From Thermoanaerobaculia bacterium (GTDB lineage Bacteria > Acidobacteriota > Thermoanaerobaculia > Multivoradales > UBA5704): DNA of 64,000 nucleotides. Location of the stretch: contig JBGAGQ010000002.1 of the NCBI GenBank assembly GCA_044226625.1, positions 160,001 to 224,000 on the forward strand. The letters are read 5' to 3'. Position 1 is the stretch's first letter, and each line of letters begins with the position of its first letter. Below are positions 12,438 through 51,768 of the stretch, piece after piece. The position numbers and the translations under genes were made by a program. Below the pieces are notes generated by a model. It was not told where the DNA came from, made no database searches, and worked only from the letters and a program-made list of their open reading frames with translations.

Positions 12438-13937
12438 CTAGAAAATCTGTTTGCGGTCGTTCGAGGATGGAATGTGCAGCTCGTCGCGATATTTGGCCAC
12501 CGTCCGGCGCGCGATCTGGATCCCCTCGCGGTTCAGGATGCGCATCAGCTCGCTATCCGAAAGCGGCTGACGAGGATCCTCGGCGCTGATCATCTGCTCG
12601 ATCTTCCGTTTCACCGTGAGCGACGAGATGTTTTCACCGTAGTCGCGGTCGATGCCGCTATGGAAGAAGAACTTGAGCGGAAACAGGCCCCGCGGCGTAT
12701 GGATGTACTTGTTCGACACGACGCGAGACACCGTCGACTCGTGCATCGAGATGTCCTCGGCCACGTCGCGCAGGACCATCGGCCGCAGGTAGTCGATTCC
12801 CTGGTCGAGGAAGTCCTGCTGCTGGCGCACGATCGAAGCGGCCACCTTGTAGATGGTCCGCTGGCGCTGGTCGAGGCTCTTGATCAGCCAGACCGCCGAC
12901 CGCATCTTGTCCTTGATGAAGCTCTGCGCCTCGGCCTGCTGCCCCTCGCTGCGCATCTTCGCGAGCATGCGCCGGTAGGCGCGCGAAACGCGCAAGCGCG
13001 GCAAGCCGTCGTCGTTCAATTGGATCACGTACTCGCTGCCGACACGGCGCACGAAAACGTCGGGCTCGATGTAGTGGACGCGTTCGTTCGAGAACTGGCG
13101 CCCCGGACAGGTCTCGAGGGTCCGAATCAGCTCGATCGCCGGCTCGAGCTCGGCAAGCTCGATGCCGAGCTTCTTGGCCACCAGGGGAAACTGGCGCCGT
13201 AGGAAGAGGTCCCAGGCCTCGGCGATCACCCGCCGGGCGAGCGCCTCGTCGGCTTCCGTCTCGGCGTCCGGGTCGTCCCCGGCGCGCCGACGGTGAAGAT
13301 GGTCGAGCTGTAGCTCCAGGCTCTCACGCAGGTTCGCGCAGGCGATGCCGGGCGGATCGAAGCTGCGCACCAGCGCGAGCGCTTTCTCGACATCTTCCAA
13401 AGTGTATCGATTCTCGTCCTCGAGATCCCCCATCGCGCGGATCTCTTCCGCGGTCGCGACCAGGAAGCCGTCGGCGTCCAAGTTTCCGATGATCAGCTCG
13501 CCGATCTCGCGCTCGATCGGTGTGCATTCCCCCATGTGGAGCTGCCACAGCAGATGGTCGTAGAGGTCCCCTTCGCGCGAGAGGCTGTTTTCGAGCGGTG
13601 AAGCTTCGCGCGTCTCGATCATCGAAGGCTCGTAGGACGAGTCCCACTCATCGCCGAAATAGGCGTCGAGATCGATGTTGTCCATCGACTCCCGATGGTC
13701 GATGACGTCGCCGTTGGGAAGCGGGGGCTCCTCCTTCGGGGAGACGCTCTCGTCGTCCTCTTCGATCTCGGCGTTCTCGCTCGCCTCTTCGAGCACCGGA
13801 TTCTCGACCAGCTCTTGAGCCAGGACGGACTCGAGCTCCATTCGGGTCATTTGCAGAAGCTTGATCGCCTGCTGCAGCGAAGGCGTCATCACCAGCTTCT
13901 GGGACAGCTTGAGCGAAAGTCGTTGCTCGAGGGCCAT
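12438..13937 (-). CDS. rpoN: RNA polymerase sigma-54 factor
   Basis: MALEQRL...MTPSLQQAIKLLQM, HESTVSR, RpoN box ARRTVAKYR. Confidence 0.97.
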   Translation of the reverse strand: MALEQRLSLKLSQKLVMTPSLQQAIKLLQMTRMELESVLAQELVENPVLEEASENAEIEEDDESVSPKEEPPLPNGDVIDHRESMDNIDLDAYFGDEWDSSYEPSMIETREASPLENSLSREGDLYDHLLWQLHMGECTPIEREIGELIIGNLDADGFLVATAEEIRAMGDLEDENRYTLEDVEKALALVRSFDPPGIACANLRESLELQLDHLHRRRAGDDPDAETEADEALARRVIAEAWDLFLRRQFPLVAKKLGIELAELEPAIELIRTLETCPGRQFSNERVHYIEPDVFVRRVGSEYVIQLNDDGLPRLRVSRAYRRMLAKMRSEGQQAEAQSFIKDKMRSAVWLIKSLDQRQRTIYKVAASIVRQQQDFLDQGIDYLRPMVLRDVAEDISMHESTVSRVVSNKYIHTPRGLFPLKFFFHSGIDRDYGENISSLTVKRKIEQMISAEDPRQPLSDSELMRILNREGIQIARRTVAKYRDELHIPSSNDRKQIF

Positions 13938-32555: not shown

Positions 32556-34802
32556 CTACTGGAAGTACCCGGTCACGTCCACGGTCAGCTGGAGGGTCCC
32601 CGTCGGCTGGATCGCCACCACCTTGAACGTCCCGTCCGCTTCGAGCGCGATGATGGCGTTGTTGGCCCTCGTCTGGCCGGCGACGTAGTTGACCGTCGCG
32701 GTGCTCGGGAACGTCCCGGAGTAGGCCACCACGTGGCCGTCCGACGCCCCGTCGATCGCCGTTACGTTGAGCGCCAAGGCCTTGGCGCCCGCCGGGATGC
32801 CGCACAGGCCGCTCGAGTTGAACGTGCGCTCCTGGCCCGGCACGAGGGCAGGTCCATTGCCCGAGCGGGTGTCGATCAACCGGCACGGCGACACGGTAAA
32901 GAACGAGCCCTGCGGCGGCGCGTCGGGATTCGCCGGCGCGAGGGTTTGGAGGGTGAGCTCCGTCGTCGGGCCGGATTCAAGGATCCCCAGGGTCGAGCTG
33001 ACCGGCACCGCCGTCCGGTCGATATCGAACCGGAACGCCACGAGCGACGCGTAGTCGATCGGAGCCGGCGGGGTCGTCCCGGTCGGCGCGGTCCAGGTGA
33101 TGCCGGTCGCGTCGGTCGTCGCGGTCCAGTTGTTGGCCGCGAAGCCGTCGCCGTCGACGTAGGTTATGTTGTCGATCGTGGCCCCGGTCGGATCGAACGG
33201 AACGTGGAAGCTCTTGATCTGCCGATCGAAGTCGTGGTTCTGGAACGCGTAGGCGAAGCGCTTCCGGCCCGGGCTACCGGCGACATCGGTCACTTTGACG
33301 GCGAGCTGGACATGCCCCTCGCCGGTGTCGAGCGACTGGTTGTCGGCGTCCGCCCCCGGCGTCGTCGGATTGACCCACGCGTTGATCGCCGGTCCGAGGG
33401 TATAGGCACCCACGGTGGGGAACGTCCAGGAGGACCCGATCTTCGCCGGAGCCACCTGGCGGTAGCCCATGCTGTTGAAGATGTTCACGTCGTTGCGGAT
33501 GATGTAGAACGCCTCGACGTAGTAGCTCGCACCCGCCACCGTCAGGTCCGTTTCCGCCGCCTTGAGGCCGTGGGTGGTGAAGTTCTCTCCGGAGCCGCTG
33601 AAGTCCTGCGTGCAATCTCCGTTGGTGTCGAAGTGGCTCGCGATGCCCCCGCAGTGTGCCCAAAGCCCGGTGGACGCCGTCACCTCGTTGCGTGGGGCAA
33701 GCGAGGTGTTGCTGTTGTTGGTGCCGGTGCTGTAGACGTCGGAGCAGCCCAGACCCAGGACCCGCCCGCTGTCGGTACAGGCGCCGACGTCGCAGCCGTT
33801 GTTCAGGGTGAGGAACGCGTGCTTGAGGTCGTTGCGGCCCAGCGGCTCCAACACGCCCCCGACCGAGCGAGTCATCTGCCAGACCAGGAAAGGATGCTGG
33901 TCGTTCCAGGGAGCCACGCCGAGGTTGGTGAACTTCGCGTACCAGGGAACGTTGGCCGTGCCGACGTTCTTGAGGTCGGCCGAAGGCAGGACCACGACCA
34001 CGGAGCGGCCGTTCACCGTCGCGATACCGGCCGAGGCGACGTTGGACATGTTGGTCAGCGAGACGTCCAGCGTGCCGCTCCAGTCGCCGCACGGCGGCGG
34101 CGCGTTGATCCCGACCGGGAGCGCGGGAGCCGGCGGCAGATTGCGGCCCGAGAGCGTCACGTCCAGGTCGAACACGCCGATGGGAACCCCTGAAAATCGA
34201 TCGTCCCCCATCAGTCGGGCAAGGTCCGGCGCGATGCGCAGGTCGGCGTTCAGGTAGCGCAGCTTGCCGGTCGGCGCATCGAACAACCACTGCGCCTCGG
34301 CGGCCGAGAGCACCGCCATGCCCGCCTTGTCGTAGAAGTCGAGCACGCCCGCTTTGTCTCCGGGCCGCATCTCGAGGTTCGAGAGGTCGAAGGTGCCGGC
34401 CCTACCGACCAAGCGGAAGCCGCCGCGGGTGTGCATGGCCGTCCCTTCGAAGCTTCGGAACCCGTCCCAGGCTACGCGAGCGCGGAGGTCGATCCGGCCG
34501 TCCAACGCGAAGGACGCCGCGTCGCGCGGCATCACCGACAGGAAGTGGGAGGTGTGCCCGGAGACCGAGGGCGCGAGATCGGTAACCTGGAAGCCGAGGC
34601 TCGCGATCCTCGAGCGCTCGAGGCCCACGGTCGCGACCCCATCCAGGATGTCCCACGAGGCGGTGATCGCCGGGGGTTGCTTCGGCGGAGCGTCGGCGGT
34701 CGCCGGGCCTGCAGCCAGAAAGGCGCCTCCGAGCAGCGCGAGCAGACGAGGAGCGATCCGAGAACGCCCGGATCGGCGAACGGAGTTTGGAGCGTAATTC
34801 AC
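32556..34802 (-). CDS. large secreted/surface hypothetical protein
   Basis: Signal peptide; Cys-containing central domain; C-terminal FTVSPCRLIDTR...ALNVT...RANNAI...VDVTGYF module of surface proteins. Confidence 0.7.
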   Translation of the reverse strand: MNYAPNSVRRSGRSRIAPRLLALLGGAFLAAGPATADAPPKQPPAITASWDILDGVATVGLERSRIASLGFQVTDLAPSVSGHTSHFLSVMPRDAASFALDGRIDLRARVAWDGFRSFEGTAMHTRGGFRLVGRAGTFDLSNLEMRPGDKAGVLDFYDKAGMAVLSAAEAQWLFDAPTGKLRYLNADLRIAPDLARLMGDDRFSGVPIGVFDLDVTLSGRNLPPAPALPVGINAPPPCGDWSGTLDVSLTNMSNVASAGIATVNGRSVVVVLPSADLKNVGTANVPWYAKFTNLGVAPWNDQHPFLVWQMTRSVGGVLEPLGRNDLKHAFLTLNNGCDVGACTDSGRVLGLGCSDVYSTGTNNSNTSLAPRNEVTASTGLWAHCGGIASHFDTNGDCTQDFSGSGENFTTHGLKAAETDLTVAGASYYVEAFYIIRNDVNIFNSMGYRQVAPAKIGSSWTFPTVGAYTLGPAINAWVNPTTPGADADNQSLDTGEGHVQLAVKVTDVAGSPGRKRFAYAFQNHDFDRQIKSFHVPFDPTGATIDNITYVDGDGFAANNWTATTDATGITWTAPTGTTPPAPIDYASLVAFRFDIDRTAVPVSSTLGILESGPTTELTLQTLAPANPDAPPQGSFFTVSPCRLIDTRSGNGPALVPGQERTFNSSGLCGIPAGAKALALNVTAIDGASDGHVVAYSGTFPSTATVNYVAGQTRANNAIIALEADGTFKVVAIQPTGTLQLTVDVTGYFQ

Positions 34803-34921: not shown

Positions 34922-34942
34922 CAAAACGTCGCTACAATGCTG
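34922..34942 (+). promoter_or_regulatory. conserved promoter element, copy 1 (contains -10 TACAAT)
   Basis: CAAAACGTCGCTACAATGCTG; 20/21 identical to 40659-40679. Confidence 0.65.
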
Positions 34943-34949
34943 CTCGTCC

Positions 34950-36536
34950 ATGGAGATCACCGGCGGTAACGGCTCGACGATCGGCCTGGCCGGAGTTCGC
35001 CGCGAGGCCTCGCCGCGGCCGGGGCGCGCCGTTCCCGCTCTGACGATCCTGCATCACCCCGACCTGTCACGAGTAGGCGACATCGCCTTGCTCGACGAGC
35101 TCGCCCATGGCGCGGTGGCTCGGGTGTCGCGCCTCACCCCGGAGCTCGCGTCGCCGGGAAGCGCCTCGGGTCGGCCGCTCTCCGACCGACATCTCTCCCG
35201 CGATCCCGTGGAGCTGTCGGCGGCCGCGGACGGCGGCGTACGCCTGGCCTGCGGCACCAGCCCGATCCGCATCGAAGCCGACGGCAAGGTCGTGCCGAAA
35301 GAGGCTCTCTTCTCCCGCGAACGGCTGGCGCGCGGCGTGGTTCTGGAGCTCGCCGAGCGGATCGTGCTGCTCCTGCATCACCGCACCTCGGCGCCGACGC
35401 TCGAAACCGAGACCTTCGGCCTGGTCGGCGCGAGCGAGGGGATCTCCCGCGTTCGCACCGACATCCGCCAGGTGGCCGATCTCGACGTTCCGGTCCTGAT
35501 CCGCGGCGACACGGGGACGGGCAAGGAGCTCGTCGCCCACGCCGTCCACACCGCCAGCCGGCGGCGCGGCGGCCCGTTCCTCGGCGTCAACATCGGCTCG
35601 ATCCCTTCTTCGCTCGCCGCCTCCGAGCTGTTCGGCGCGGTGCGGGGCGCCTTCACCGGAGCCGTCGAGCCGCGGGCCGGCTTTTTCCGCCGCGCCCATG
35701 GCGGCACGCTCTTTCTGGACGAGATCGGCGAGGTGAGCGGCGAGGTGCAGGCGATGCTCCTGCGCGTCCTGGAAACCGGCGAGCTCTACGCGGTGGGAAG
35801 CCAGGCGGCGCAGCAGGTGGACGTACGGGTGCTCGCCGCGACCGATTCGAACCTCGAAGCCCGCGCCCGGAGCGGCGACTTCCGCGCGCCGCTCCTCCAC
35901 AGGCTCGGCGGTTATGTCATCTGGCTCCCCCCTCTCCCCGAGCGACGTGAGGACTTCGGCCGGCTGTTCCACCATTTCTTGTCCGACGAGATCGCGCGGG
36001 TCGACGCCGAGAGCCGCCCTCCGGCCGAACGCATCCCCGCCTCGCTGGTGGCGCGCCTCGCCCGGCACGACTGGCCGGGTAACGTGCGTCAGCTCCGCAA
36101 CGTCGCCCGACAGCTGGTCATCGCCAATCGCGGCCGCGATCGCATCGAGATCACCCCGGCGGTCGATCGCCTGCTCGCCGAGTCGCCGACTACCGGCTCC
36201 CGAGTAGCCGCCCGTCCGGTGGCGGTTCCCCGGAGACGGCGCAGCTCCGAGATCCCCGACGCCGAGGTCGAGGCGGCGGTACGAGCCCATCGGTTCGATC
36301 TCCAGGCGGCGGCCGTGTCGCTCGGCATCTCGCGTCCTTCCCTGTACGAACGGATCGCCGCCCATCCGACCCTGCGAACGGCGAGCGACCTTTCGACCAC
36401 CGAGATTTCCGCCGCCTTCGAGGCCTGCGCCGGGGACTTGGAACGCCTGGTCGATCGTCTCGAGGTCTCCCCTCGGGCGCTCGGCCGCCGCTTGCGGGAG
36501 ATGGGACTCCTCCCCCGCGGCGAAGGCGAGGCATGA
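34950..36536 (+). CDS. sigma54-dependent enhancer-binding protein with FHA-like N-terminal domain
   Basis: GDTGTGKE, GAFTGA, LFLDEIG, WPGNVRQL, two C-terminal Fis-like HTHs; N-terminal beta domain with DRHLSR (FHA-like); no receiver domain. Confidence 0.9.
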   Translation: MEITGGNGSTIGLAGVRREASPRPGRAVPALTILHHPDLSRVGDIALLDELAHGAVARVSRLTPELASPGSASGRPLSDRHLSRDPVELSAAADGGVRLACGTSPIRIEADGKVVPKEALFSRERLARGVVLELAERIVLLLHHRTSAPTLETETFGLVGASEGISRVRTDIRQVADLDVPVLIRGDTGTGKELVAHAVHTASRRRGGPFLGVNIGSIPSSLAASELFGAVRGAFTGAVEPRAGFFRRAHGGTLFLDEIGEVSGEVQAMLLRVLETGELYAVGSQAAQQVDVRVLAATDSNLEARARSGDFRAPLLHRLGGYVIWLPPLPERREDFGRLFHHFLSDEIARVDAESRPPAERIPASLVARLARHDWPGNVRQLRNVARQLVIANRGRDRIEITPAVDRLLAESPTTGSRVAARPVAVPRRRRSSEIPDAEVEAAVRAHRFDLQAAAVSLGISRPSLYERIAAHPTLRTASDLSTTEISAAFEACAGDLERLVDRLEVSPRALGRRLREMGLLPRGEGEA

Positions 36537-39166
36537 CCGACGAAGGGCGCGAGGAGTCCGGCGGGTCCGAGGGTTCCCGGCCCGTCCCCGAAAGGATCGG
36601 TCCCTATCGGATCCTCTCGCGACTGGGCGCCGGCGGCATGGGCGAGGTCTTCCTCGCGCTCGACGAGCGGCTCGACCGGCGCGTGGCGCTCAAGAGGATC
36701 CGGACCGCCTCCGACGTCACGACCGAGCGGCGAGAGCGCTTCCGGCGCGAGGCGCGGCTCGCTGCCCGCTTGAACCATCCTTCGATCGTCCAGATCTACG
36801 ACGTGCTGTCCGACGGGGACGCCGAGGTGCTCGTCTTCGAATACGTCGAGGGAGCGACCCTTCGGCAGATCGTCGACCGCAGCCCCCTCGCCCCGGGCCG
36901 GGCCGCAGCGATCGGCCGCGACGTCGCCCTCGGGCTCGCCGAGGCGCACCGCCTGGGGATCGTCCACCGCGATCTGAAGACCGAAAACGTCCTGGTGACG
37001 CCGGCGGGCCGGGCGAAGGTCGCCGACTTCGGGGTCGCCAAAGGCGGGCTCGAGGGGGACGACCTGACCGCCACCGGCATGGTGGTCGGCACCACCCGCT
37101 CGATGTCTCCCGAGCAGGCGCGTGGCGAACCGGCCGATTTCCGCTCGGACCTGTTTTCGTTCGGCATCCTCCTCTATGAAGCGCTCGGCGGACGCTCGCC
37201 GTTCACCGGGGCGAACCCGCTTTCGACACTCCAGCGCGTCTTGCACGACGATCCTCCGCCGCTTCATCTGGCGGTCGCGGGGGTCCCCAAAGAGTTTTCG
37301 GAGCTCGTCCATCGGCTACTCGCCAAAGAGCCGCACCTGCGGCCCCGGAGCGCCTCGGAGGTTGCGTCCGCGCTCGGCGCCTGGGCCGACGAGTCGCTTC
37401 ACCGCCTCGACGACGAGGAGACCGCGTTCGAAACACCGTCGTTGCGCGCCGCGGCGCTCCCTCCGCTCCCCTCCACAGGGACCAAGGAGCCGACCACGCC
37501 GCGGCGGTTTCGCGCCGCCCGCGGAGCGGTCGCCGTCGGCGCGGCCTTGCTGGGCCTCGGCGCCGCCGCGGCGATTTATTTCGCCGTGCGCTCCCCCACC
37601 CCTCCGCTCGAGATCGCCGTGCTGCTGCCGGAGATCGGCCCGGCCGGCCGAGGTCGGCCGGAGGTCGAGCTGATTGCCGCGGCCGTGCGCGACGCCGCGT
37701 TGCGCCAGCTGGGCGATCTCCGAGGGGTGGCCCCCAAAGCGCCCGAGGAGGTCGACGCCGTGCAGGGACCCGCGAGTGGGGTCGCCCGCGCGGTCGCCGC
37801 GCAGGAGCTGATCGCCTCTCGCCTCGACTGTCGGGCCGCTAGCTGCCGTCTGACCTTGCGGCGCATCCGCGGCGCCGACGGCGCGCTGCTCGACGCCGAG
37901 AGTCAGGATCTGCCGATCGAGGATCTCGCGCTCGCGAGCCACGCGGTCGAGAGTCTGGTGCTGCGCGCCTTCCCGGAGCGGCGGTCGCGCCGGGGCGGGA
38001 GCGAGCTCGGAGCGGGCAGCGAGGAGATCGCCGAGCTCCTCCACCTGCGCCAGGCGCTCGACGCGCCGACCGGCCCCGATCTTTCGGGCATCCTCGAGCG
38101 GATCGCCGCGCTGCGCGGCCGCGCTCCGCGATTTTTCGACGTGTATCTCCTGGAGACCGACGCCGAACGGCTCGCGTTCGTCCGCTCCCGCGAGCGCCGT
38201 CATCTGGAGGCCGCCTTCGCCCGGTTGGAGGAAGCCAAAACCCTCTCCCCCGACAGTCCGGAGCCGTTTCGGAGCGAGGTCTACGTGGCCCTGGCCGGGG
38301 GCGAGACCGATCGGGCGGCGCGCGCCCTGCGCGAATTCGCGGCGAGGAACCCCGGCGACCCGCGAGCCCTGGAGCTCGGCGCCTTGGTCGACAATGCGTC
38401 GGGGCGACCGCGGGAGGCGCTCGCGAAGTTGCGCGCCGCCGTGCGCGACTACCCGTCCCAACGCCGGCTGCGCAACCTGGCGAACCTCGAGGCCCAGCAG
38501 GGCGAGATCGCCGCTGCCCGCGAGCATCTCGACCAGCTCCTCCGCGACGCGCCGGACGACGAACAGGGCCTGTCGGCCCTCGCGGGGCTCGAGCTGGGAA
38601 GCGGCGATCCGGCCCGCGCCGAGGCGCTCTACGCGCGGATCGTGCGGAGGTCCCCCCGCCTGGTGCCGCTCACCAATCTGGGGCTCGCCCGCATGCTCCT
38701 GGGTCGTCACGCCCAAGCGGCGGAGAGCTTCGAACGGGCCGCCCAGCTCGCCCCGTCCGATCCTCTCGTCGCCCTGAACCTCGCCGACGCGTGGGAGTTG
38801 CTCGGCCGCAAGCGCGAGGCCGCGGCGAAGTACTCCCAGGTGGTGGCCGCGATCACGGCAGATCCCGCCGCGACCGAGGCCCAATATCGCTCGACCCTCG
38901 CCCAAGCGCTCGCCCATCTCGGTCGGGGGCCGGAGGCGGTCGAGGCGATCCAGGACGCGCTGCGCACCGCCCCGAAGAACGCCCAGGTCGCCTACGAGGC
39001 GGCTCTCGTCTATAGCCTTCTGGGGGAGCGCTCCTCCGCGCTCACCAACGCCCGCCGCGCCATGGAGCTCGGTTGCGAGCCGCGCTGGTTCGGCTTTCCG
39101 TGGTTTGCCGACCTCCGAGCGCGCCCCGAGTTCGGCGCCCTGCTCGCCAAGGCGCCGAACGGCTGA
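36533..39166 (+). CDS. Hanks-type Ser/Thr kinase - TM - alpha/beta domain - TPR repeats (paralog 1)
   Basis: GAGGMGEV, VALK, HRDLKTEN, DFG, SPEQ; TM GAVAVGAALLGLGAAAAIYFAV; TPRs; ATGA-coupled to the activator. Confidence 0.92.
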   Translation: MTDEGREESGGSEGSRPVPERIGPYRILSRLGAGGMGEVFLALDERLDRRVALKRIRTASDVTTERRERFRREARLAARLNHPSIVQIYDVLSDGDAEVLVFEYVEGATLRQIVDRSPLAPGRAAAIGRDVALGLAEAHRLGIVHRDLKTENVLVTPAGRAKVADFGVAKGGLEGDDLTATGMVVGTTRSMSPEQARGEPADFRSDLFSFGILLYEALGGRSPFTGANPLSTLQRVLHDDPPPLHLAVAGVPKEFSELVHRLLAKEPHLRPRSASEVASALGAWADESLHRLDDEETAFETPSLRAAALPPLPSTGTKEPTTPRRFRAARGAVAVGAALLGLGAAAAIYFAVRSPTPPLEIAVLLPEIGPAGRGRPEVELIAAAVRDAALRQLGDLRGVAPKAPEEVDAVQGPASGVARAVAAQELIASRLDCRAASCRLTLRRIRGADGALLDAESQDLPIEDLALASHAVESLVLRAFPERRSRRGGSELGAGSEEIAELLHLRQALDAPTGPDLSGILERIAALRGRAPRFFDVYLLETDAERLAFVRSRERRHLEAAFARLEEAKTLSPDSPEPFRSEVYVALAGGETDRAARALREFAARNPGDPRALELGALVDNASGRPREALAKLRAAVRDYPSQRRLRNLANLEAQQGEIAAAREHLDQLLRDAPDDEQGLSALAGLELGSGDPARAEALYARIVRRSPRLVPLTNLGLARMLLGRHAQAAESFERAAQLAPSDPLVALNLADAWELLGRKREAAAKYSQVVAAITADPAATEAQYRSTLAQALAHLGRGPEAVEAIQDALRTAPKNAQVAYEAALVYSLLGERSSALTNARRAMELGCEPRWFGFPWFADLRARPEFGALLAKAPNG

Positions 39167-39180
39167 GAGAGGCGCCCCGG

Positions 39181-39966
39181 CTACTCGCCCTCCACTCCGG
39201 GCGGCTCGACCAGGATCGTCGGATCGTTCGGCGCTTTCAGCTTCTCGTCGACGGGGACGATCTTCAGCGGCACCGTGGCGGGCTTCATCCCGGCATCGAC
39301 CGAAACCGTGAGCGTCACCGTGTTGCCGACCTGTGTTCTGGTGATGTAACTCGGCTGGCCTTGAGGAAACTCGATACCGGGCACCGCCAGCTCGAACTGG
39401 GCATCGAAGACCACCTGGTAGATGCCGAAGTCACCGATCAGCGCGTAGTAATCCGAAGAGAGCCCGCTGAGCTTCTGGTTGCCGTGGGAGTAGATGTAGT
39501 CGGTGGCGACCAGGCTGATGCCCACCTGCAGCGTGTTGGGATCGCTCGGAGCGTCGGAGGCGGTCAGGCCTGGTGGCTCGACCAAGATCGTGGGGTCGAG
39601 GATTTCGGTGCCACCTCCGGATGTCGTTGCCACCAGCGAGAACGAGGCGCGCTCCCCCACGGTCGCGTCGGTGGCGATCAGGAGCGTCACCTGGCTCGGG
39701 CTCTCGTTGCTGCCGTCCAGATAGATGCTGATCCCTTTGTGTTCCGAGTTGAAAACCACCGCCGGGCTCGCAAAGTTGAAGCCCTGGGCGTTGAACGTCA
39801 GGAAATAACGTCCGGGCTTGGCGATGTCGAGCCGTCGATGGTCCGTATTCCAGCTCAGGTTCGTGGCGGAGGTCGGTTGCGGCGTGAAGATCCTTTGGCC
39901 GTCCTTGGCGATCGAGACATCGACGGTGAGGCTGTTGGTTTGGTTCGGTCCGCCTAGATTCAGCAT
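39181..39966 (-). CDS. two-domain DP-motif protein (DP-EP/DUF1888-like)
   Basis: Two ~130-aa beta-rich repeats, each ending DPTILVEPPG; GGAGG RBS; no signal peptide. Confidence 0.7.
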   Translation of the reverse strand: MLNLGGPNQTNSLTVDVSIAKDGQRIFTPQPTSATNLSWNTDHRRLDIAKPGRYFLTFNAQGFNFASPAVVFNSEHKGISIYLDGSNESPSQVTLLIATDATVGERASFSLVATTSGGGTEILDPTILVEPPGLTASDAPSDPNTLQVGISLVATDYIYSHGNQKLSGLSSDYYALIGDFGIYQVVFDAQFELAVPGIEFPQGQPSYITRTQVGNTVTLTVSVDAGMKPATVPLKIVPVDEKLKAPNDPTILVEPPGVEGE

Positions 39967-40023
39967 GGTCCCTCCCTCGAGGCGTCGTCCGGCGCCCCGG
40001 CGTCAAGGCATTGAATGGTTGGT

Positions 40024-40410
40024 TCAGAAACGGGGCGGCTCGACCAGGATCGTCGGATCGGAGGTCGCGCCGTCGTCCCGATGCACGAGGAATTCGACGA
40101 CCTGCGGAAAGGCGACACCCTCGTACGGCGCGTCGATGGTGACGGTGAAAGATGCGTCGCGCTGCTCCCAGGTGACGTTTTTCGGCTGGCCGTGCGGAAA
40201 ACCGATCGCGGGAACGGCGAGCTTGAAATCGGTCATGAAATTCAGGTCGAACGTGCCGTAGTCGGTGATGCGGCCGAAGCGGAGGCCGTCGCTGAAGGAG
40301 ATGCCCGGAGACTCGTACTGGGTGGTGTAGACGAATCGGCCGGCGGGCGAGGTGTCGATCTGGACGTCCAGGATTCCACCGGTCGTTTCCACGATCAGAG
40401 GCATGGCCAT
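40024..40410 (-). CDS. single-domain DP-motif protein (DP-EP/DUF1888-like)
   Basis: AAGGAGG RBS; 128 aa ending DPTILVEPPRF; shares FxLAVPxIxFPxGQP with domain 2 of the neighbouring gene. Confidence 0.72.
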   Translation of the reverse strand: MAMPLIVETTGGILDVQIDTSPAGRFVYTTQYESPGISFSDGLRFGRITDYGTFDLNFMTDFKLAVPAIGFPHGQPKNVTWEQRDASFTVTIDAPYEGVAFPQVVEFLVHRDDGATSDPTILVEPPRF

Positions 40411-40509
40411 GGTGGTCCTCCTTGCGCTGGGCGCAGAAATCCGGTTCGCCGCGGAAGCCGCCCCGCTCGGTTGCCGTCGTACCGCTGAACCGTGATGCCC
40501 ACCTCCCAC

Positions 40510-40525
40510 TACAAGGGGCGTGCCA
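40510..40525 (-). promoter_or_regulatory. sigma54 -24/-12 promoter of the DP-protein operon
   Basis: TGGCACGCCCCTTGTA vs consensus TGGCACGNNNNTTGCW; correct spacing, one mismatch at -12. Confidence 0.7.
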
Positions 40526-40577
40526 GGCATTCGACCCCGGCGGAACGCCCGACCCCGCCCCTCCCACCGCGCATCGT

Positions 40578-40609
40578 CGACGTGTCGGCGACGCGTCGTC
40601 GACGTGTCG
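40578..40609. promoter_or_regulatory. putative enhancer: three CGAC-NN-GTCG units at an 11-bp period
   Basis: CGACGTGTCG-g-CGACGCGTCG-t-CGACGTGTCG, about 55-85 bp upstream of the -24 box. Confidence 0.55.
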
Positions 40610-40658
40610 CGAGGCCCCGGAGGTCAAAAAACGGCAATCCGAACGCTCTGGAACCCGA

Positions 40659-40679
40659 CAAAATGTCGCTACAATGCTG
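40659..40679 (+). promoter_or_regulatory. conserved promoter element, copy 2
   Basis: CAAAATGTCGCTACAATGCTG, 11 nt before the kinase-2 ATG. Confidence 0.65.
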
Positions 40680-40690
40680 ACCGACCCTGC

Positions 40691-43270
40691 ATGAATTTTC
40701 TCGGCGGAGAGCGGCTGGGACCCTACCTACTGGTCGAACGACTCGGTTCGGGCGGCATGGGAGAGGTCTTCCTGGCGATCGACGAACGCCTCGATCGACG
40801 GGTTGCCTTGAAGCGCATCCACGCCGGACCGGGTGCCACGGCCGAGAGACGGGATCGGTTTCGGCGCGAAGCTCGGCTCGCCGCCCGGTTGAACCACCCG
40901 TCGATCGTCCAAATCTACGACGTCCTCTCCGACGGCGAGGACGAGATCCTGGTCCTCGAGTACGTCGAGGGGACCACGCTGCATCGCATGCTCCAAGGCG
41001 CGCCGCTTTCCCCCACCCGGGCGGCGGCGATCGGACGTGACGTCGCCCACGGCCTCGCCGAAGCGCATCGGCAAGGCATCGTCCATCGCGATCTGAAAAG
41101 CGAGAACGTCCTGGTGACGCCCCTCGGGCGCGGGAAGATCTCCGACTTTGGAGTCGCCAAGCGGCAGATCGAGGACGACGGCCTCACCGCGAGCGGAATC
41201 GTCATGGGCACGACCCGATCGATGTCGCCGGAACAGGCACGAGGTGAGCCGGTCGATTTCCGCTCGGACCTCTTCTCCCTGGGCATTCTGCTCTACGAGG
41301 CGCTCGGAGGTCGTTCGCCGTTCGTCGGCGCAAACCCGCTGTCGACCGTTCAGCGCATCCTGAACTCTGAGCCGGAACCGCTCGCACACCTCGAACCGGA
41401 GGTGCCCCGAGATCTGGCCGATCTCGTCCACCGCCTTCTCGCCAAGGAACCGCATCTGCGCCCGCGCAGCGCCGCGGAGGTCGCGGGCGTGCTCTCCGCC
41501 TGGGCCGACGGGCCGGACACCGGCGAGGAGTCGACGGTGGCCGAGCCCGCCGTTTCCCGGCTCAAGCGAACCCCGAAGACCGCGCCGTCCGAACCCGATC
41601 GACCCCGTCGCGGCGCGCGGCGCCTTCTGCTCCTCGGACCGCCGGCGCTCGTTCTCGCGATCGGCGCCGTGCTCTTCCTTCTCCTGCGGCCTCCCGCTCC
41701 GCCGCTCGAAGTCGCGATCCTCGCGCCGACGATTTCCGGCTCCGCGTCGGGGGAGGCGGTCGGCGCGGGATCGCTCCTCTCCGCCGGAGTCCGCGTGGCC
41801 GAGCTGCAGGTGATCTCCGGACTGTCGGGCGTCGCGGCCAAAGTCCCCGACGAGATCGACAAGGCGAAAGGAACCTTGCGGCAGATCGCCCTGGCGCTCA
41901 ATGCCGACGAGCTGATCGCGACCAAGCTGGTCTGCCGCGACCCTTCGTGCGTGGTCACCCTCGACCGAATTCGGGGCGAAGACGCGACGCTCATCGAGTC
42001 GGCGGCTCTCTCGGTTCCGTTCGACGATCCCCTCCTCGCGGCGCGCGCGGTCGCTTCGCGCATCCGCGCTTTCTATCCCGAGCGCCGAGCGCGAGACGGT
42101 GCCGGCGACCTTTCGATCTCGAGCCGCGATTTCGCGGAGTTCCTGCGCCTCTCCTCCCGGTTCCGCGCACGGCGTACGGCGGATCTCGGCACGTTGCTCG
42201 ACCAGGCCGTCTTGCTCTCCTCCCGCTCGCCCCGGTTCGTCGAGGGGTGGCTGCTCGAATCGGAGATCGCTCGCCACCGCTTCCTGCAATCGCGCGACCC
42301 GGCCGATTTGGAGCGCTCGCTCGAAAGCAGCCGCCAAGCGCGAAACATCGCCCCGGGCGACCCGCGGCCGCTCGTGTTTCTGGTATCCGCCGCCGCAGCG
42401 GGCGGCCGGCTCGAGATCGCGAGAGAGGCGCTGAGGGAGCTGGAACGGCTTTCGCCCGGAGATCCGATGGTGCTCGACCGTCGCGCGATCGTCGCCCAGG
42501 CGAGCGGCCGGCCCGACGAGGCGCTTCGGTTCGCCCGCGCCGAGGCGGCGATCCACCGCTCTGTCGCGACGTTGAGCAACCTCGCCTGGTACGAGGTGCA
42601 GCAGGGAGAGACCGCCGCGGCCCGGGCGACCCTCGAAGAGCTGCTCCGGCGTTCGCCCGACGACGCGGACGGGCTTTCGCAGCTCGCCTACCTGGAGCTC
42701 TCGACCGGCGATCCCGCCCGGGCCGAAAAGCTCTATGCCCGGCTCGTGCGGCAGGCGCCGCGCTTCGCCCCGATCACCAACCTCGGCCTGTCGCGGATGG
42801 TCCTCGGTCGCTACGGCGAAGCGGTCGAGGCACTCACCCGCGCCGCGGCGCTCGAACCGGCCAATCCCGTCGCGCGCTTGAACCTCGCCGACGCGCGGCT
42901 CCTGCTCGGAAAGACCGCCGAAGCCGAGGCGGACTATCGCGCCGTGCTCACCCAGTTGGCGAAAGATCCCGCGACCGCGACGACGCCGCAATGGCTCACC
43001 ATCCGCGGCCAGGCGTTAGCCCACCTCCATCGCGGCGCCGAGGCGGTCGCCTCGGTCCAGGAGGCTCTCCGGCTCGCGCCGAAGAGCCCCCAGGTCGCCT
43101 TCGAGGCCGCTCTCGTCTACACCCTCTCGGGCGAGCGCCTTTCCGCTCTCGCCGCCGCCTCGCGCGCCCGCGAGCTCGGCCTCGAACCCGGCTGGTTCCG
43201 CTTCCCCTGGTTCGATCCGATCCGCGCGGAGCCCGTGTTCCAAAAGCTCTCGAGAGCGGGCAGGCCCTAG
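40691..43270 (+). CDS. Hanks-type Ser/Thr kinase - TM - alpha/beta domain - TPR repeats (paralog 2)
   Basis: GSGGMGEV, HRDLKSEN, DFG, GTTRSMSPEQ; TM LLLLGPPALVLAIGAVLFLLL; TPRs; kinase domain closely similar to paralog 1. Confidence 0.92.
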   Translation: MNFLGGERLGPYLLVERLGSGGMGEVFLAIDERLDRRVALKRIHAGPGATAERRDRFRREARLAARLNHPSIVQIYDVLSDGEDEILVLEYVEGTTLHRMLQGAPLSPTRAAAIGRDVAHGLAEAHRQGIVHRDLKSENVLVTPLGRGKISDFGVAKRQIEDDGLTASGIVMGTTRSMSPEQARGEPVDFRSDLFSLGILLYEALGGRSPFVGANPLSTVQRILNSEPEPLAHLEPEVPRDLADLVHRLLAKEPHLRPRSAAEVAGVLSAWADGPDTGEESTVAEPAVSRLKRTPKTAPSEPDRPRRGARRLLLLGPPALVLAIGAVLFLLLRPPAPPLEVAILAPTISGSASGEAVGAGSLLSAGVRVAELQVISGLSGVAAKVPDEIDKAKGTLRQIALALNADELIATKLVCRDPSCVVTLDRIRGEDATLIESAALSVPFDDPLLAARAVASRIRAFYPERRARDGAGDLSISSRDFAEFLRLSSRFRARRTADLGTLLDQAVLLSSRSPRFVEGWLLESEIARHRFLQSRDPADLERSLESSRQARNIAPGDPRPLVFLVSAAAAGGRLEIAREALRELERLSPGDPMVLDRRAIVAQASGRPDEALRFARAEAAIHRSVATLSNLAWYEVQQGETAAARATLEELLRRSPDDADGLSQLAYLELSTGDPARAEKLYARLVRQAPRFAPITNLGLSRMVLGRYGEAVEALTRAAALEPANPVARLNLADARLLLGKTAEAEADYRAVLTQLAKDPATATTPQWLTIRGQALAHLHRGAEAVASVQEALRLAPKSPQVAFEAALVYTLSGERLSALAAASRARELGLEPGWFRFPWFDPIRAEPVFQKLSRAGRP

Positions 43271-43705
43271 CTATCGGGGATTCTTTGGGTCGAAGTTGCC
43301 CCCGGTGCCGCCCGGCGGATCGATCGCGATCGAGGGATCGTGCGATCCGAGGCTGGTTTGGATCGTCGTTGAGATCGACGCCGGGAGCTGAGCCAACGCC
43401 TTGTTGACCGTGACCGTCAATTCGAAACTCGGTGCTCCTTCTTCAATATCCGGGGGAAGGGACAACGTGATGCCGTCGAACGCGCCCGGAGTGAACGTGA
43501 TCGGGGGATTGTTGAAGGTCATCAATGCCAACGAGCTCTCGAAGGTCAATAGGAACGTGTCGATTTCGTTGTCCGGGAGCTGAGGCGCGGTCTTCAGGGT
43601 GATCGTCGCGCTGCCAGGCACGATCAGGCCTACGTTCGGGTTGGGCACGACCGCGGTGACCACGGGTACAGGAGAAACGGTCAAGGTGGCTGAGAATTCG
43701 GACAT
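43271..43705 (-). CDS. DP-motif protein (DP-EP/DUF1888-like)
   Basis: GGAGG RBS; 144 aa, beta-rich, with HDPSIAIDPPGG near the C-terminus; its stop abuts the kinase-2 stop. Confidence 0.68.
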   Translation of the reverse strand: MSEFSATLTVSPVPVVTAVVPNPNVGLIVPGSATITLKTAPQLPDNEIDTFLLTFESSLALMTFNNPPITFTPGAFDGITLSLPPDIEEGAPSFELTVTVNKALAQLPASISTTIQTSLGSHDPSIAIDPPGGTGGNFDPKNPR

Positions 43706-43783
43706 GGAAGTCCCTCCGATCGGCACGGTCGATACCAGCCGAAATTTGAGCCTCGGTCATTTCCGTGGGCTGCATCGACTGAT

Positions 43784-43799
43784 GGCAACCGACATGCCA
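43784..43799 (-). promoter_or_regulatory. sigma54 -24/-12 promoter
   Basis: TGGCATGTCGGTTGCC; GG-N10-GC intact. Confidence 0.75.
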
Positions 43800-43880
43800 T
43801 AGCCAGCTTGCGAATTGAATGGAACTTCGCTCTCCGGCTTTCTTCGGAAAACCTGGGATCGGCCTTGCCAAGGGGCAAGC

Positions 43881-43906
43881 CGACGCGTTTTCCCGACGTG
43901 TCGGCG
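43881..43906. promoter_or_regulatory. putative enhancer
   Basis: CGACGCGT...CGACGTGTCGGCG; the 13-mer at 43894-43906 is identical to 40578-40590. Confidence 0.5.
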
Positions 43907-43983: not shown

Positions 43984-44475
43984 TCAGTTGATCGTGAGCG
44001 AGGAGGAAGCGGTGCAGATCAGCGCGTTGGTCGTCGTGTTGCGCGATTCGACGGTCACCGTCGTGGTGCCTTTGATCGCGCCGGCGAGAGGCACCAGCGT
44101 GCTGTCGAAAGAGCCCGCGATGCAGCCGCCGGAGGAGGTCCAGATCTTCTGGCGCGTGGTGTTCTCGACGAATCCCGCCAGGTTGGTCGGCCAGGCGAAC
44201 GAGAAAGTCTCCTTGTGCGGCTGGCTGTCACAGGGGCTGTAAGAGATCGAGAAGCTGAGCGTCGCACCGTTGGTCGCCGGGTTCGGCGAGAGCGTCAAGG
44301 TGCAGCTCGTCGCCGCCGCCGCGGCCGCGCCCTTTGGAGCGACGCCGAGCACGACGCCGCTCTTCGTGTCCTTCCTCCCCGCATCCTGGGCCTTTTCGCC
44401 CTCCTGGGCCAGCAGGGATCCCGCGGAACCAACGATTACACCGATGACGAGGACGATTGGACGGATCTGCCTCAT
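43984..44475 (-). CDS. small secreted Cys-containing beta-sandwich protein
   Basis: Signal peptide, four Cys, Ser/Thr-rich beta strands, AGGAG RBS. Confidence 0.65.
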   Translation of the reverse strand: MRQIRPIVLVIGVIVGSAGSLLAQEGEKAQDAGRKDTKSGVVLGVAPKGAAAAAATSCTLTLSPNPATNGATLSFSISYSPCDSQPHKETFSFAWPTNLAGFVENTTRQKIWTSSGGCIAGSFDSTLVPLAGAIKGTTTVTVESRNTTTNALICTASSSLTIN

Positions 44476-47760: not shown

Positions 47761-49032
47761 TCAGTCCTCCCTCGAGAATCGGGACACGATCTGGTCGAGG
47801 CGCCCGGCGCGGAAATAGCGGCGCGGCAGCCGAAGGCCCAGATGACAAAGGATCTCCCACGAGATCGTTCCCGCCTGCCGCGCGAGGTCGACCGCGGTGA
47901 TCCGCTCTTTCCCCTGCCGGCCGAGCAGCACCGCCTCGTCGCCCAGCGAGGCGTCGACGTCGGTCACGTCGAGCAGCGTCATATCCATCGTCACCGATCC
48001 CGCGACGGGAACGCGCCGTCCCGCGACCAGCGCGTGCGCCTGGCCGGTGAGGCGCCAGGCGTAACCATCGGCGTAGCCCACGGGGACGACGGCGATCCGG
48101 CTCGGCCGCGTGGTCACGGTCCGGCCGCCGTAGGAGAGCTGCGTTCCCGCCGGGACCTCGCGGACCTGGACGATCTTCGCCACCACCGACATCACCGGCT
48201 CGAGCCCCGTCGGATCCACCGGATCGGTCACCGGGTCGATGCCGTAGAGGCCGATCCCCATGCGCACCAGGGTGTTTCGCGACGAGGGACGATGGAGCGC
48301 CGCCGCCGAGTTCGCCATGTGGATCTCGATCGACTCCCGCTCCGCGGCGGAAAGCTGACCGAGCACGTCGAGGAAACGGTTCTCCTGGCGGTCGTTCTTG
48401 GCGTTCTCGAGGTCGTCGGCGCTGGCGAAATGGGACAGGAGCCCAGCCATTCGCAGCTGGGGCGACGAGCGCACGATCTCCAGCGCCCGCGGCACCTCGG
48501 AGAGCGGTACGCCCAGGCGCCCCATCCCCGTGTCGACCTTCAGATGGAAATGCTGCGACGAGCCCGAGGTATTGCCCGTCGCCCACTCCCGCCAGAGCGC
48601 GAGCTCTTCGAGGCTCGAGATCGCCGGGGTGAGGTCGTAGCGGCGGTAGAGCGCGAGCCACTCCGGCCGCGCGGTACCGAGGACGAGGATCGGCAGGTCG
48701 ACTCCCGAGCGGCGGATTTCCGCTCCCTCTTCGAGCAGGGCCACGCCGAGCCAGTCGACTCCCGCCGCCTCGAGCGCGCGAGAGACCCCGATCGCCCCGT
48801 GGCCGTACGCGTCGGCCTTCACCACGGCGAGGATGCGCGACGAGCCCATCCGTCCGCGCAAGGCGCGCAGGTTCGAATCGAGCACGTCGAGGTCGACGTC
48901 CACCCAGGCCGGGCGCAGCGCCGAGGCGAGCAGCTCCGCCTCGCTCGGCCGCCGGGCCGTGGCGGACGCGGCCTCCGGCTCGGGCGCCTCGGGCTCGCGG
49001 GCCTCAGAAGGGTGAAGAGTGATCGAGGCCAT
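47761..49032 (-). CDS. alr: alanine racemase
   Basis: VVKADAYGHG (PLP Lys), KVDTGMGRLG, SHFA, ANS, GYADG. Confidence 0.95.
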   Translation of the reverse strand: MASITLHPSEAREPEAPEPEAASATARRPSEAELLASALRPAWVDVDLDVLDSNLRALRGRMGSSRILAVVKADAYGHGAIGVSRALEAAGVDWLGVALLEEGAEIRRSGVDLPILVLGTARPEWLALYRRYDLTPAISSLEELALWREWATGNTSGSSQHFHLKVDTGMGRLGVPLSEVPRALEIVRSSPQLRMAGLLSHFASADDLENAKNDRQENRFLDVLGQLSAAERESIEIHMANSAAALHRPSSRNTLVRMGIGLYGIDPVTDPVDPTGLEPVMSVVAKIVQVREVPAGTQLSYGGRTVTTRPSRIAVVPVGYADGYAWRLTGQAHALVAGRRVPVAGSVTMDMTLLDVTDVDASLGDEAVLLGRQGKERITAVDLARQAGTISWEILCHLGLRLPRRYFRAGRLDQIVSRFSRED

Positions 49033-51643: not shown

Positions 51644-51768
51644 CGAGGAGGGGGTCGGACCGGGAGAGGCGTGGCGGTCATTCTCCCGCAACGCACGGGG
51701 GAGCGGCAAGCGGCGATATCCTCCCGGGACCGGCTTCGCTCGCCGGGAACCTCCTCGACGACCGTTCG

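Follow-up and report, generated by a model that had tools for sequence, protein, structure and literature searches.

A Thermoanaerobaculia locus proposed to link TPR-containing Hanks-type kinases, an FHA-like sigma-54 activator, and divergent DP-EP proteins

INTRODUCTION

How are two Hanks-type protein kinases, a sigma-54 activator, and a set of small proteins ending in an Asp-Pro motif tied together at a single Thermoanaerobaculia locus? The question is raised by a 64,000-nucleotide (nt) stretch of DNA (the window, G000:C76:160001-224000; positions refer to it unless a contig or locus is named) from a 6.6 Mb draft genome of 133 contigs. An original prediction, made from the sequence without database searches, had proposed an undescribed circuit in which a kinase with TPR repeats (K1 or its paralog K2) activates an FHA-like sigma-54 enhancer-binding protein, which in turn switches on the small proteins, called here DP-A, DP-B, and DP-C. 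We favor, with somewhat more conviction than doubt, a signaling module specific to the Thermoanaerobaculia in which a kinase acts through an FHA-type activator and sigma-54 on proteins of the DP-EP kind.

RESULTS

Two kinases, one activator, and three DP genes

The genes in question are the following.

34950..36536, plus strand: sigma-54 enhancer-binding protein (the activator), 528 amino acids (aa), ATG at 34950
36533..39166, plus strand: kinase 1 (K1), Hanks-type Ser/Thr kinase, 877 aa; Pkinase PF00069 (E = 5.2e-46) and TPR families
39181..39966, minus strand: DP-A, 261 aa, two tandem DP-EP-like domains; DP profile E = 8e-37 and 1e-36 for the two halves
40024..40410, minus strand: DP-B, 128 aa, a single DP-EP-like domain ending in SDPTILVEPPRF
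40691..43270, plus strand: kinase 2 (K2), K1 paralog, 859 aa; Pkinase PF00069 (E = 2e-47) and TPR
43271..43705, minus strand: DP-C, 144 aa, a DP-EP-like domain ending in HDPSIAIDPPGGTGGNFDPKNPR; profile E = 6e-23

The gene arrangement described in the original prediction stands. The activator stop codon overlaps the K1 start (36533) as ATGA, both kinase paralogs have Pkinase and TPR matches, and each kinase gene ends tail-to-tail with a DP gene, K1 (end at 39166) with DP-A (39181) across a gap of 14 bp and K2 (43270) with DP-C (43271) across a gap of 0 bp. No terminator-like hairpin was found between the convergent genes. A ribosome-binding site, AAGGAGGA, lies upstream of DP-B.

Each DP-A domain ends in DPTILVEPPG (motifs at 39571-39597 and 39199-39225). 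When all six frames of the genome were scanned for DP.[ILV].[VIL][EDQN]PP, four of the seven matches fell at the locus, within three open reading frames (two in DP-A, and those of DP-B and DP-C); only these four sit at the end of a domain, the remaining three lying inside unrelated long open reading frames. We detected no signal peptide in the DP proteins, and neither Pfam nor NCBIfam assigned them to a family. The K1-linked and K2-linked partners are approximately 20% identical to each other.

Within K1, the kinase domain is followed by a Thr/Pro-rich linker, one transmembrane segment (approximately residues 334-356, with hydrophobicity peaking at residue 334), then an alpha/beta region and TPR repeats, and finally a TPR end domain (NF047558 TPR_END_plus, residues 820-871). 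Both K1 and K2 carry one hydrophobic segment after the kinase domain, preceded by arginines and followed by approximately 500 residues ending in TPR, and both are predicted to have a cytoplasmic kinase domain and an extracytoplasmic TPR sensor. The VALK, HRDLK, DFG, and SPE motifs of Hanks kinases are seen in the translations and are invariant in 23 sequences. K2 is 74% identical to K1 in the kinase domain, 28% in the linker, 38% in the first outer domain, and 57% in the TPR region. A complex of the K1 cytoplasmic part, the FHA domain, and DP-B was not supported by structure prediction (score 0.02, mark 0.32), a result that is evidence neither for nor against an interaction.

The activator N-terminal domain is predicted to have a divergent FHA fold

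The activator consists of an N-terminal domain of predicted FHA fold (approximately residues 25-150), an AAA+ domain, a lid, and a Fis-type helix-turn-helix, with Pfam matches to Sigma54_activat (PF00158, E = 2.9e-56), AAA_lid_14, and HTH_8 (E = 5e-8). The Sigma54_activat match, a GAFTGA motif intact in the translation, and the DNA-binding helix-turn-helix identify it as a sigma-54 enhancer-binding protein, and Pfam found no receiver domain in it. After the Fis-type helix-turn-helix there is a second conserved helix-turn-helix-like stretch (LEVS.R.L..RL..LGL, within 36360-36536), which is kept in 21 of 21 aligned homologs.

The original prediction had called the N terminus FHA-like, a description that a structure model of the domain now sustains. 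The model, built on 24 sequences, reached a predicted local distance difference test score (pLDDT) of 90.7, and in a Foldseek search of the PDB all 14 matches at E ≤ 0.001 were FHA domains or entries holding one. The top ones, DgcB, OdhI, ArnA, CT664, and GarA, have TM scores of 0.68-0.81 on the target, and kinesin is also among the 14. Comparison by hhalign with nine canonical FHA domains of the same genome gave a probability of 40% (E = 3e-4, 58 columns) and placed the invariant Ser59-Arg60 of the activator on the FHA SR-x-H motif; an invariant Arg17 lies in the loop preceding these residues, and a conserved loop of 25 residues is inserted in the domain. A precomputed FHA assignment was present in 0 of 39 activator homologs. 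On the model, the domain is predicted to be a divergent FHA fold and is a likely candidate for a reader of phosphothreonine. It marks a large paralogous family, members of which are found in 43 of 61 related genomes, one of them carrying as many as 21 copies.

Sigma-54 boxes, palindromes, and a second promoter type

The regulatory features are these.

34922..34942, plus strand: promoter element AAAACGTCGCTACAATGCTG with a TACAAT −10-like hexamer, which ends 11 nt before the activator ATG
40660..40679, plus strand: the TACAAT promoter element once more, 15 nt upstream of the K2 ATG
40510..40525, minus strand: sigma-54 −24/−12 box TGGCACGCCCCTTGTA, 100 nt upstream of the DP-B ATG
40578..40609, minus strand: three adjacent 10-bp palindrome-like sites, CGAC(A/G)(C/T)GTCG, 55-85 bp upstream of the −24 box
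43784..43799, minus strand: sigma-54 box TGGCATGTCGGTTGCC upstream of DP-C, among the strict matches in the genome
43894..43903, minus strand: CGACACGTCG site upstream of the DP-C promoter
12447..12923 (G000:C76:172447-172923), minus strand: Sigma54_DBD stretch of rpoN, the sigma-54 gene (PF04552, E = 6.7e-66)

The pattern TGGCAYN5TTGCW, with at most one mismatch, matched three times in the 64 kb, twice upstream of DP units on the minus strand (shuffles averaged 0.88, and 6 of 100 reached three); 17 strict boxes occur genome-wide. The upstream region of DP-B contains TGGCA(C/T)-N5-TTG(C/T), 115-130 nt before the ATG, in all seven usable genomes of the genus, a count from which one mis-registered cut (G005) was left out. 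The original prediction had placed sigma-54 boxes before both DP units; both were found and are conserved in relatives, but the −12 element of DP-B reads TTGTA rather than TTGC. Apart from that element, which has TG here, the promoters show GG at −24, GC at −12, the expected spacing, and upstream sites. The single PF04552 match of the whole genome lies in the window, in rpoN.

An upstream motif held to be common to the two DP units, CGACACGTCG, was likewise recovered, with three matches in the window, all in the two DP upstream regions (shuffle mean 0.59; 2 of 100 reached three). Two to four CGAC(A/G)(C/T)GTCG sites lie at the same position before DP-B in six other genomes of the genus, and before DP-C two sites are found at the same place in G002 and G007, where the box is also kept (three of three with this genome). 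The palindromes are presumed, from their sequence and position, to be binding sites of the activator. In the 6.6 Mb, paired palindromes are confined to the DP-B promoter and one other locus, C76:111911-111960. That locus belongs to a third probable target 88 kb away (C76:111911-112954; L086:1911-2955), in which three CGAC(R)(Y)GTCG sites are followed 30 bp on by TGGCACGTCGCTTGCG and then by a gene whose secreted 288-aa product belongs to no family. Of seven homologous places, two, those of the closest orthologs (G004 and G007), retain the box and two sites.

The activator and K2 genes have a promoter of another type. The exact 15-mer GTCGCTACAATGCTG occurs twice in the window (0 of 100 shuffles reached two), once before each, as had been proposed for an element common to the two genes, and these are also the sole two copies in the 6.6 Mb genome. 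The TACAAT element stands before the activator in seven of seven genus genomes and before K2-type genes in four of four cases (one in G002, two in G007). Since 11-15 nt separate TACAAT from the ATG and no ribosome-binding site is present, the messages probably have very short leaders. A sigma-54-like box before the activator (TGGATCGAGTCGTTGCA) was rejected for its wrong spacing.

The DP proteins are divergent relatives of the DP-EP family

Although the original prediction had treated the DP proteins as being of unknown kind, fold, motif alignment, and sub-threshold Pfam matches show that they are divergent relatives of the Pfam DP-EP/DUF1888 family (PF08985). The DP-B model (pLDDT 88.4, eleven strands) returned SO1698 of Shewanella oneidensis in all of the first 11 ranks of a Foldseek search of the PDB (best E = 4.8e-5), and VIA-align superposed model residues 10-125 on chain residues 5-123 with Z scores of 11.1 and 10.6 and a root mean square deviation of 2.3 Å over 101 residues. 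Only the fold search found SO1698: searches of the PDB by sequence, with DP profiles A1 and A3 and with P0093, gave nothing significant. In the full-length DP profile alignment, ylSqDPtiLNa is paired with SO1698 vLSPDPQIINR (a match with an E value of 0.8 by itself), and the structural ranges, with an offset of 2, put DP-B D118 on SO1698 D116. The PDB entries are titled as an aspartic peptidase and include the mutants D116A and P117A. SO1698 is described in PMC11655445 as a self-cleaving endopeptidase reported to cleave at low pH.

By likeness to SO1698, the DP proteins probably cut themselves at the invariant Asp-Pro of their DPTI motif. For SO1698, the cut reportedly falls between Asp116 and Pro117 (Osipiuk et al., J Biol Chem, 2012), and the list of mutants points to the same two residues. 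Among 25 aligned DP-type sequences the Pro is invariant, the Asp is near-invariant, and 24 read DP[TS]; Asp-Pro is followed by Thr or Ser in nearly all kinase-linked members (by Ser in DP-C) and by Gln in SO1698.

Pfam assignments follow the same divergence. No PF08985 match was found in 14 database relatives of the DP proteins, and the PF08985 hidden Markov model found nothing over the cut-off in this genome or among 301 phylum genomes. Of six distant kinase-linked DP relatives, two match it below threshold (19.7 and 18.7 bits), and a homolog 67% identical to one distant relative has a precomputed PF08985 assignment. An exhaustive profile search of 1.84 billion representatives returned 37 proteins at E ≤ 0.001, of which approximately 25 are small and end in DPT(I/V). 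When the Atlas was queried with the DP-B ortholog P0004, 10-15% of the members of the clusters reached carried PF08985.

The tails past the DP motif vary by lineage and paralog (RF, GVEGE, GGTGGNFDPKNPR, or a 35-40-aa tail ending in ALRAV). In one subgroup (L071:2534-2974; P0091-P0098) an acidic, Cys-containing tail of 35-40 aa follows DPTILNAEVPPT and has the conserved ALRAV end. At L074:260-295, a remnant DPTVVNNPDPA followed by a stop lies between the sigma-54 box and a full DP gene and looks like the decayed end of an earlier DP copy. A weak DP-profile match inside a 917-aa frame of G030 was treated as doubtful.

Conservation within the genus, across the order, and in a second order

Co-occurrence of the three gene types in other genomes, which the proposed circuit requires, was seen both as synteny in the genus and at seven loci of other genera. 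Genomes of the genus carry, in this order, the genes for the secreted protein, activator, K1, DP-A/DP-B, and Mla, with these identities to G000.

Mla protein: 86-89%
Activator: 77-82%
DP-B: 76-81% in most genus genomes
K1: 67-77%
DP-A: 29-50%

A unit of K2, DP-C, and the gene for a 163-aa secreted protein is confined, within the genus, to G000, G002, and G007, and the activator stays single.

Outside the genus we sampled 20 activator-paralog loci by rank, from other genera of the order and from several families. A kinase is adjacent in 10 of the 20. Each of the six loci with a K1-like sensor (39-50% identity) has a convergent small open reading frame ending in DP[TS]I, compared with 0 of the other 14 sampled loci, and G059 supplied the seventh locus of activator, kinase, and convergent DP gene. 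Read by eye, a sigma-54-like box is present in five of the six K1-like loci, and CGACGTGTCG-type repeats are present in two. A search with the DPTVVNNP subgroup found two 1-kb metagenome contigs in which the DP gene converges with the same kinase C terminus, one of them with a sigma-54 box and GTGTCG repeats; the same search of genome contigs found nothing.

A broader DP profile gave weak matches in a second order of the class (G498, flagged unpublished, enters only this tally). At all four loci analyzed in that order, the DP-like gene lies directly downstream of, and co-directional with, a gene for a kinase-TPR protein of 838-952 aa, which has a clear membrane segment in three of the four. 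The motif is DPT(V)(E/Q)NDPP, once DPD.

This genome also contains a second kinase-activator pair. On the minus strand of contig C45 (L020:6360-11685), genes for an 800-aa kinase-TPR protein and a 529-aa FHA-type activator are followed by an avidin-family gene (135 aa), whose upstream region has a sigma-54-like box, TGGCATCAACGCTGCA, and GACGTT-type repeats. The pair is found with a different sigma-54 target and is therefore a reusable device.

Setting of the locus

On one side the module is flanked by a large secreted protein of no family and on the other by an Mla-type transporter operon, with housekeeping genes (PriA, carbonic anhydrase, amidase, alanine racemase, DnaB) around it. Near-identical proteins in the databases bear the names Thermoanaerobaculia or Acidobacteriota. 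Two neighboring genes have been mentioned above.

32556-34802, minus strand: 748-aa secreted protein, divergent from the activator gene, no Pfam or NCBIfam family
43984..44475, minus strand: 163-aa small secreted protein, signal-peptide-like N terminus, no family match

The 748-aa protein adjoins the activator also in G001 and G003 (78-79% identity), and the 163-aa gene accompanies the K2/DP-C unit in both G002 and G007. The DnaB helicase gene (49004-51709, minus strand) is split by an intein with a LAGLIDADG endonuclease domain.

A hint of expression

Three metatranscriptome runs of one study contain contigs near-identical to DP-A, the DP-B/DP-A junction, DP-C, the 163-aa gene, and the 3' end of K2, which hints that the DP genes of the module are expressed. 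For the activator and K1, those runs contain only short pieces from other organisms.

DISCUSSION

A circuit running from the kinases through the activator and sigma-54 to the DP proteins is the most economical account of the locus, because the genes co-occur, the sigma-54 promoters and palindromes are conserved, and the activator has a predicted FHA fold. We infer that it would work as follows. A cue outside the membrane would lead to autophosphorylation of the kinase on threonine, in the activation loop or in the Thr/Pro-rich linker. The FHA domain of the activator would dock on that phosphothreonine, or the activator might itself be phosphorylated, and kinase-to-activator signaling of either kind would free the AAA+ domain for assembly at the CGAC(R)(Y)GTCG palindromes. 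So assembled, the activator would open the sigma-54 promoters of the DP-B/DP-A operon, of DP-C, and of one distant secreted-protein gene. A self-cut at Asp-Pro could then part the two domains of DP-A from each other and leave a short C-terminal strand free or loosened. With the TPR region predicted on the outer side of the membrane and the DP proteins lacking a signal peptide, the topology argues against simple contact between the two. Judged from sequence, the topology, the divergence of K1 and K2, and the Thr or Ser after Asp-Pro would be compatible either with a role in the cytoplasm, as substrate or adaptor, or with export as a peptide signal.

Several observations weigh against this circuit. 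Pfam assigned no family to activator residues 1-160 even at E ≤ 10, FHA (PF00498) included. The classical FHA His is an invariant Pro in the activator and the Asn-Gly is not kept, and because these hallmarks are missing, phosphothreonine reading is likely rather than proven. DP-A, DP-B, and DP-C do not reach the PF08985 gathering score (25 bits), and Glu-Pro replaces Asp-Pro in some family members. The −12 element of the DP-B promoter is TTGTA in this genome compared with TTGC in six of six relatives, and the promoter may be weakened in this strain. The metatranscriptome runs were retrieved using the DP-A/DP-B stretch, and RNA contigs cannot prove transcription. No kinase lies within approximately 6 kb in 10 of the 20 sampled activator-paralog loci, so that this class of activator is not always found beside a kinase. 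In the second order, the 11.5-12 kb around each of the four DP-like genes contains no such activator and no strict sigma-54 box. The activator is therefore not needed for the kinase-DP link, which looks older than the tie to the activator. Kinase and DP look, from their gene neighborhoods, like the core pair, and a direct functional tie between them is more likely than regulation alone.

The second-order loci bear on the first alternative, in which the kinase and DP protein, and not the activator, form the conserved core, each kinase has its own DP-EP protein as a direct partner or substrate in the cytoplasm, and the activator of this lineage adds only transcriptional feedback. The Thr or Ser after Asp-Pro could, for example, be phosphorylated, gating self-cleavage or assembly or making a ligand for the FHA domain. 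Kinase and DP-like genes adjoin in two orders in different orientation (convergent in nine loci outside the genus, co-directional in four of four in the other order, with no activator in the stretches covered), and within the genus K2, DP-C, and the 163-aa gene are present or absent together beside one activator. DP[TS] in 24 of 25 aligned sequences, as against DPQ in SO1698, would suit a phosphorylated residue, and the absence of signal peptides would leave the DP proteins in the same compartment as the kinase and FHA domains. There is, however, no direct evidence for phosphorylation of DP proteins, one DP-like protein of the other order has DPD, and classical FHA domains read phosphoserine poorly, whereas DP-C has Ser. 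The kinase domains are, furthermore, 74% identical while the DP partners are approximately 20% identical, so that it is the linker and outer domains, not the catalytic domain, that have diverged. We regard this alternative as unlikely.

Peptide autoinduction, in which the Asp-Pro cut frees a C-terminal peptide of 8-40 residues led by Pro-Thr-Ile that exits the cell and is read by the paired TPR ectodomain, closing a positive loop through the activator, strikes us as quite improbable. It would account for tails after the DP motif that differ between lineages and paralogs, for kinase sensor regions that diverge along with them, and for kinase and DP genes that duplicate together; TPR domains also commonly bind short peptides. 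The module, however, has no signal peptide on the DP proteins and no exporter, there is no supporting sign of peptide release, and TILV forms a strand of the sandwich in the DP-B model, so that it may stay bound after cleavage.

We find it very doubtful that the activator is governed by some other input, with its FHA-like domain a degenerate regulatory or oligomerization domain, the kinases acting on other substrates, and adjacency reflecting shared regulation only. In its favor are the incomplete set of FHA hallmarks, the lack of a kinase at half of the sampled paralog loci, and the common, constitutive-looking TACAAT promoter of the activator-K1 operon and K2. Against it, the activator and K1 genes overlap at ATGA and a kinase is adjacent in 10 of 20 paralog loci from several families, including a second pair in this genome that has another sigma-54 target.

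A more speculative extension, which we consider a long shot, is that DP-EP proteins are self-processing partners of the TPR Hanks kinases and that the Pro-Thr-led peptide is the cognate signal, either outside, at the TPR ectodomain, or, phosphorylated on Thr, inside, as an FHA ligand. If true, this would amount to a peptide-based autoinduction or feedback loop with a sigma-54 activator and would give a function to the orphan DUF1888 family.

Returning to the circuit from kinase through activator to DP proteins, the locus offers a first regulatory context for the orphan DP-EP family, a divergent branch of which is tied to TPR Hanks kinases in two Thermoanaerobaculia orders and in one of them can also be named as the target of an FHA-type sigma-54 activator whose binding site is readable. 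To our knowledge, the DUF1888/DP-EP family has a solved self-cleaving member and no known biological role. Full-text searches on DP-EP, PF08985, DUF1888, and SO1698 turned up only clan listings and a biotechnological use, with no genomic or regulatory context. Ser/Thr kinase input to sigma-54 transcription via an FHA domain, and the purpose of DP-EP self-cleavage, can now be tested with a few clones. The locus also provides a compact, well-delimited regulon (palindrome plus sigma-54 box) in a phylum on which little genetic work has been done. As for "undescribed", the word of the original prediction, no report of such a module in Acidobacteria was found in the literature searched; the parts themselves are a divergent FHA domain and a divergent branch of the DP-EP family.

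Among known proteins, SO1698 is the closest to the DP proteins, with an all-beta sandwich of approximately 125 aa and SPDPQIIN where the DP proteins have S(Q)DPTILN or SDPTILVEPP. The DP proteins differ in falling below the Pfam cut-off, in having Thr or Ser for Gln, in occurring in tandem and fused copies, and in adjoining TPR kinases under sigma-54 control. The PixA inclusion-body proteins and MakD have the same cupredoxin-like sandwich; their scores are lower than that of SO1698 (PixA 4lzk, Z = 9.2; MakD, Z = 7.4-7.8) and they have no motif in common with the DP proteins. Laccase cupredoxin domains also score lower, and no copper ligands are conserved in the DP family. DP-EP and PixA are both placed in Pfam clan CL0026, according to PMC9038741.

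For the regulatory half of the module, three systems invite comparison. Myxococcus xanthus reportedly has FHA-domain sigma-54 enhancer-binding proteins, the subject, to go by the title, of work by Jelsbak, Givskov, and Kaiser from 2005. There, as here, an FHA domain takes the place of a receiver on a sigma-54 activator, in an organism rich in Hanks kinases; here, by contrast, Pfam fails to recognize the divergent FHA domain, the genes for kinase and activator overlap, and targets can be named from promoter and site conservation. The N-domain model also matches the FHA domains of GarA and OdhI, including 6i2p, which contains the PknB kinase domain with its substrate GarA. GarA and OdhI regulate enzymes and not transcription, whereas the FHA domain of this module forms part of an AAA+ sigma-54 activator. 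In the PspF-PspA phage-shock system, finally, a receiver-less sigma-54 activator has as its main target a nearby small-protein gene whose product feeds back on the activator; the two systems are unrelated in sequence, and for the DP proteins such feedback on the activator is only a possibility.

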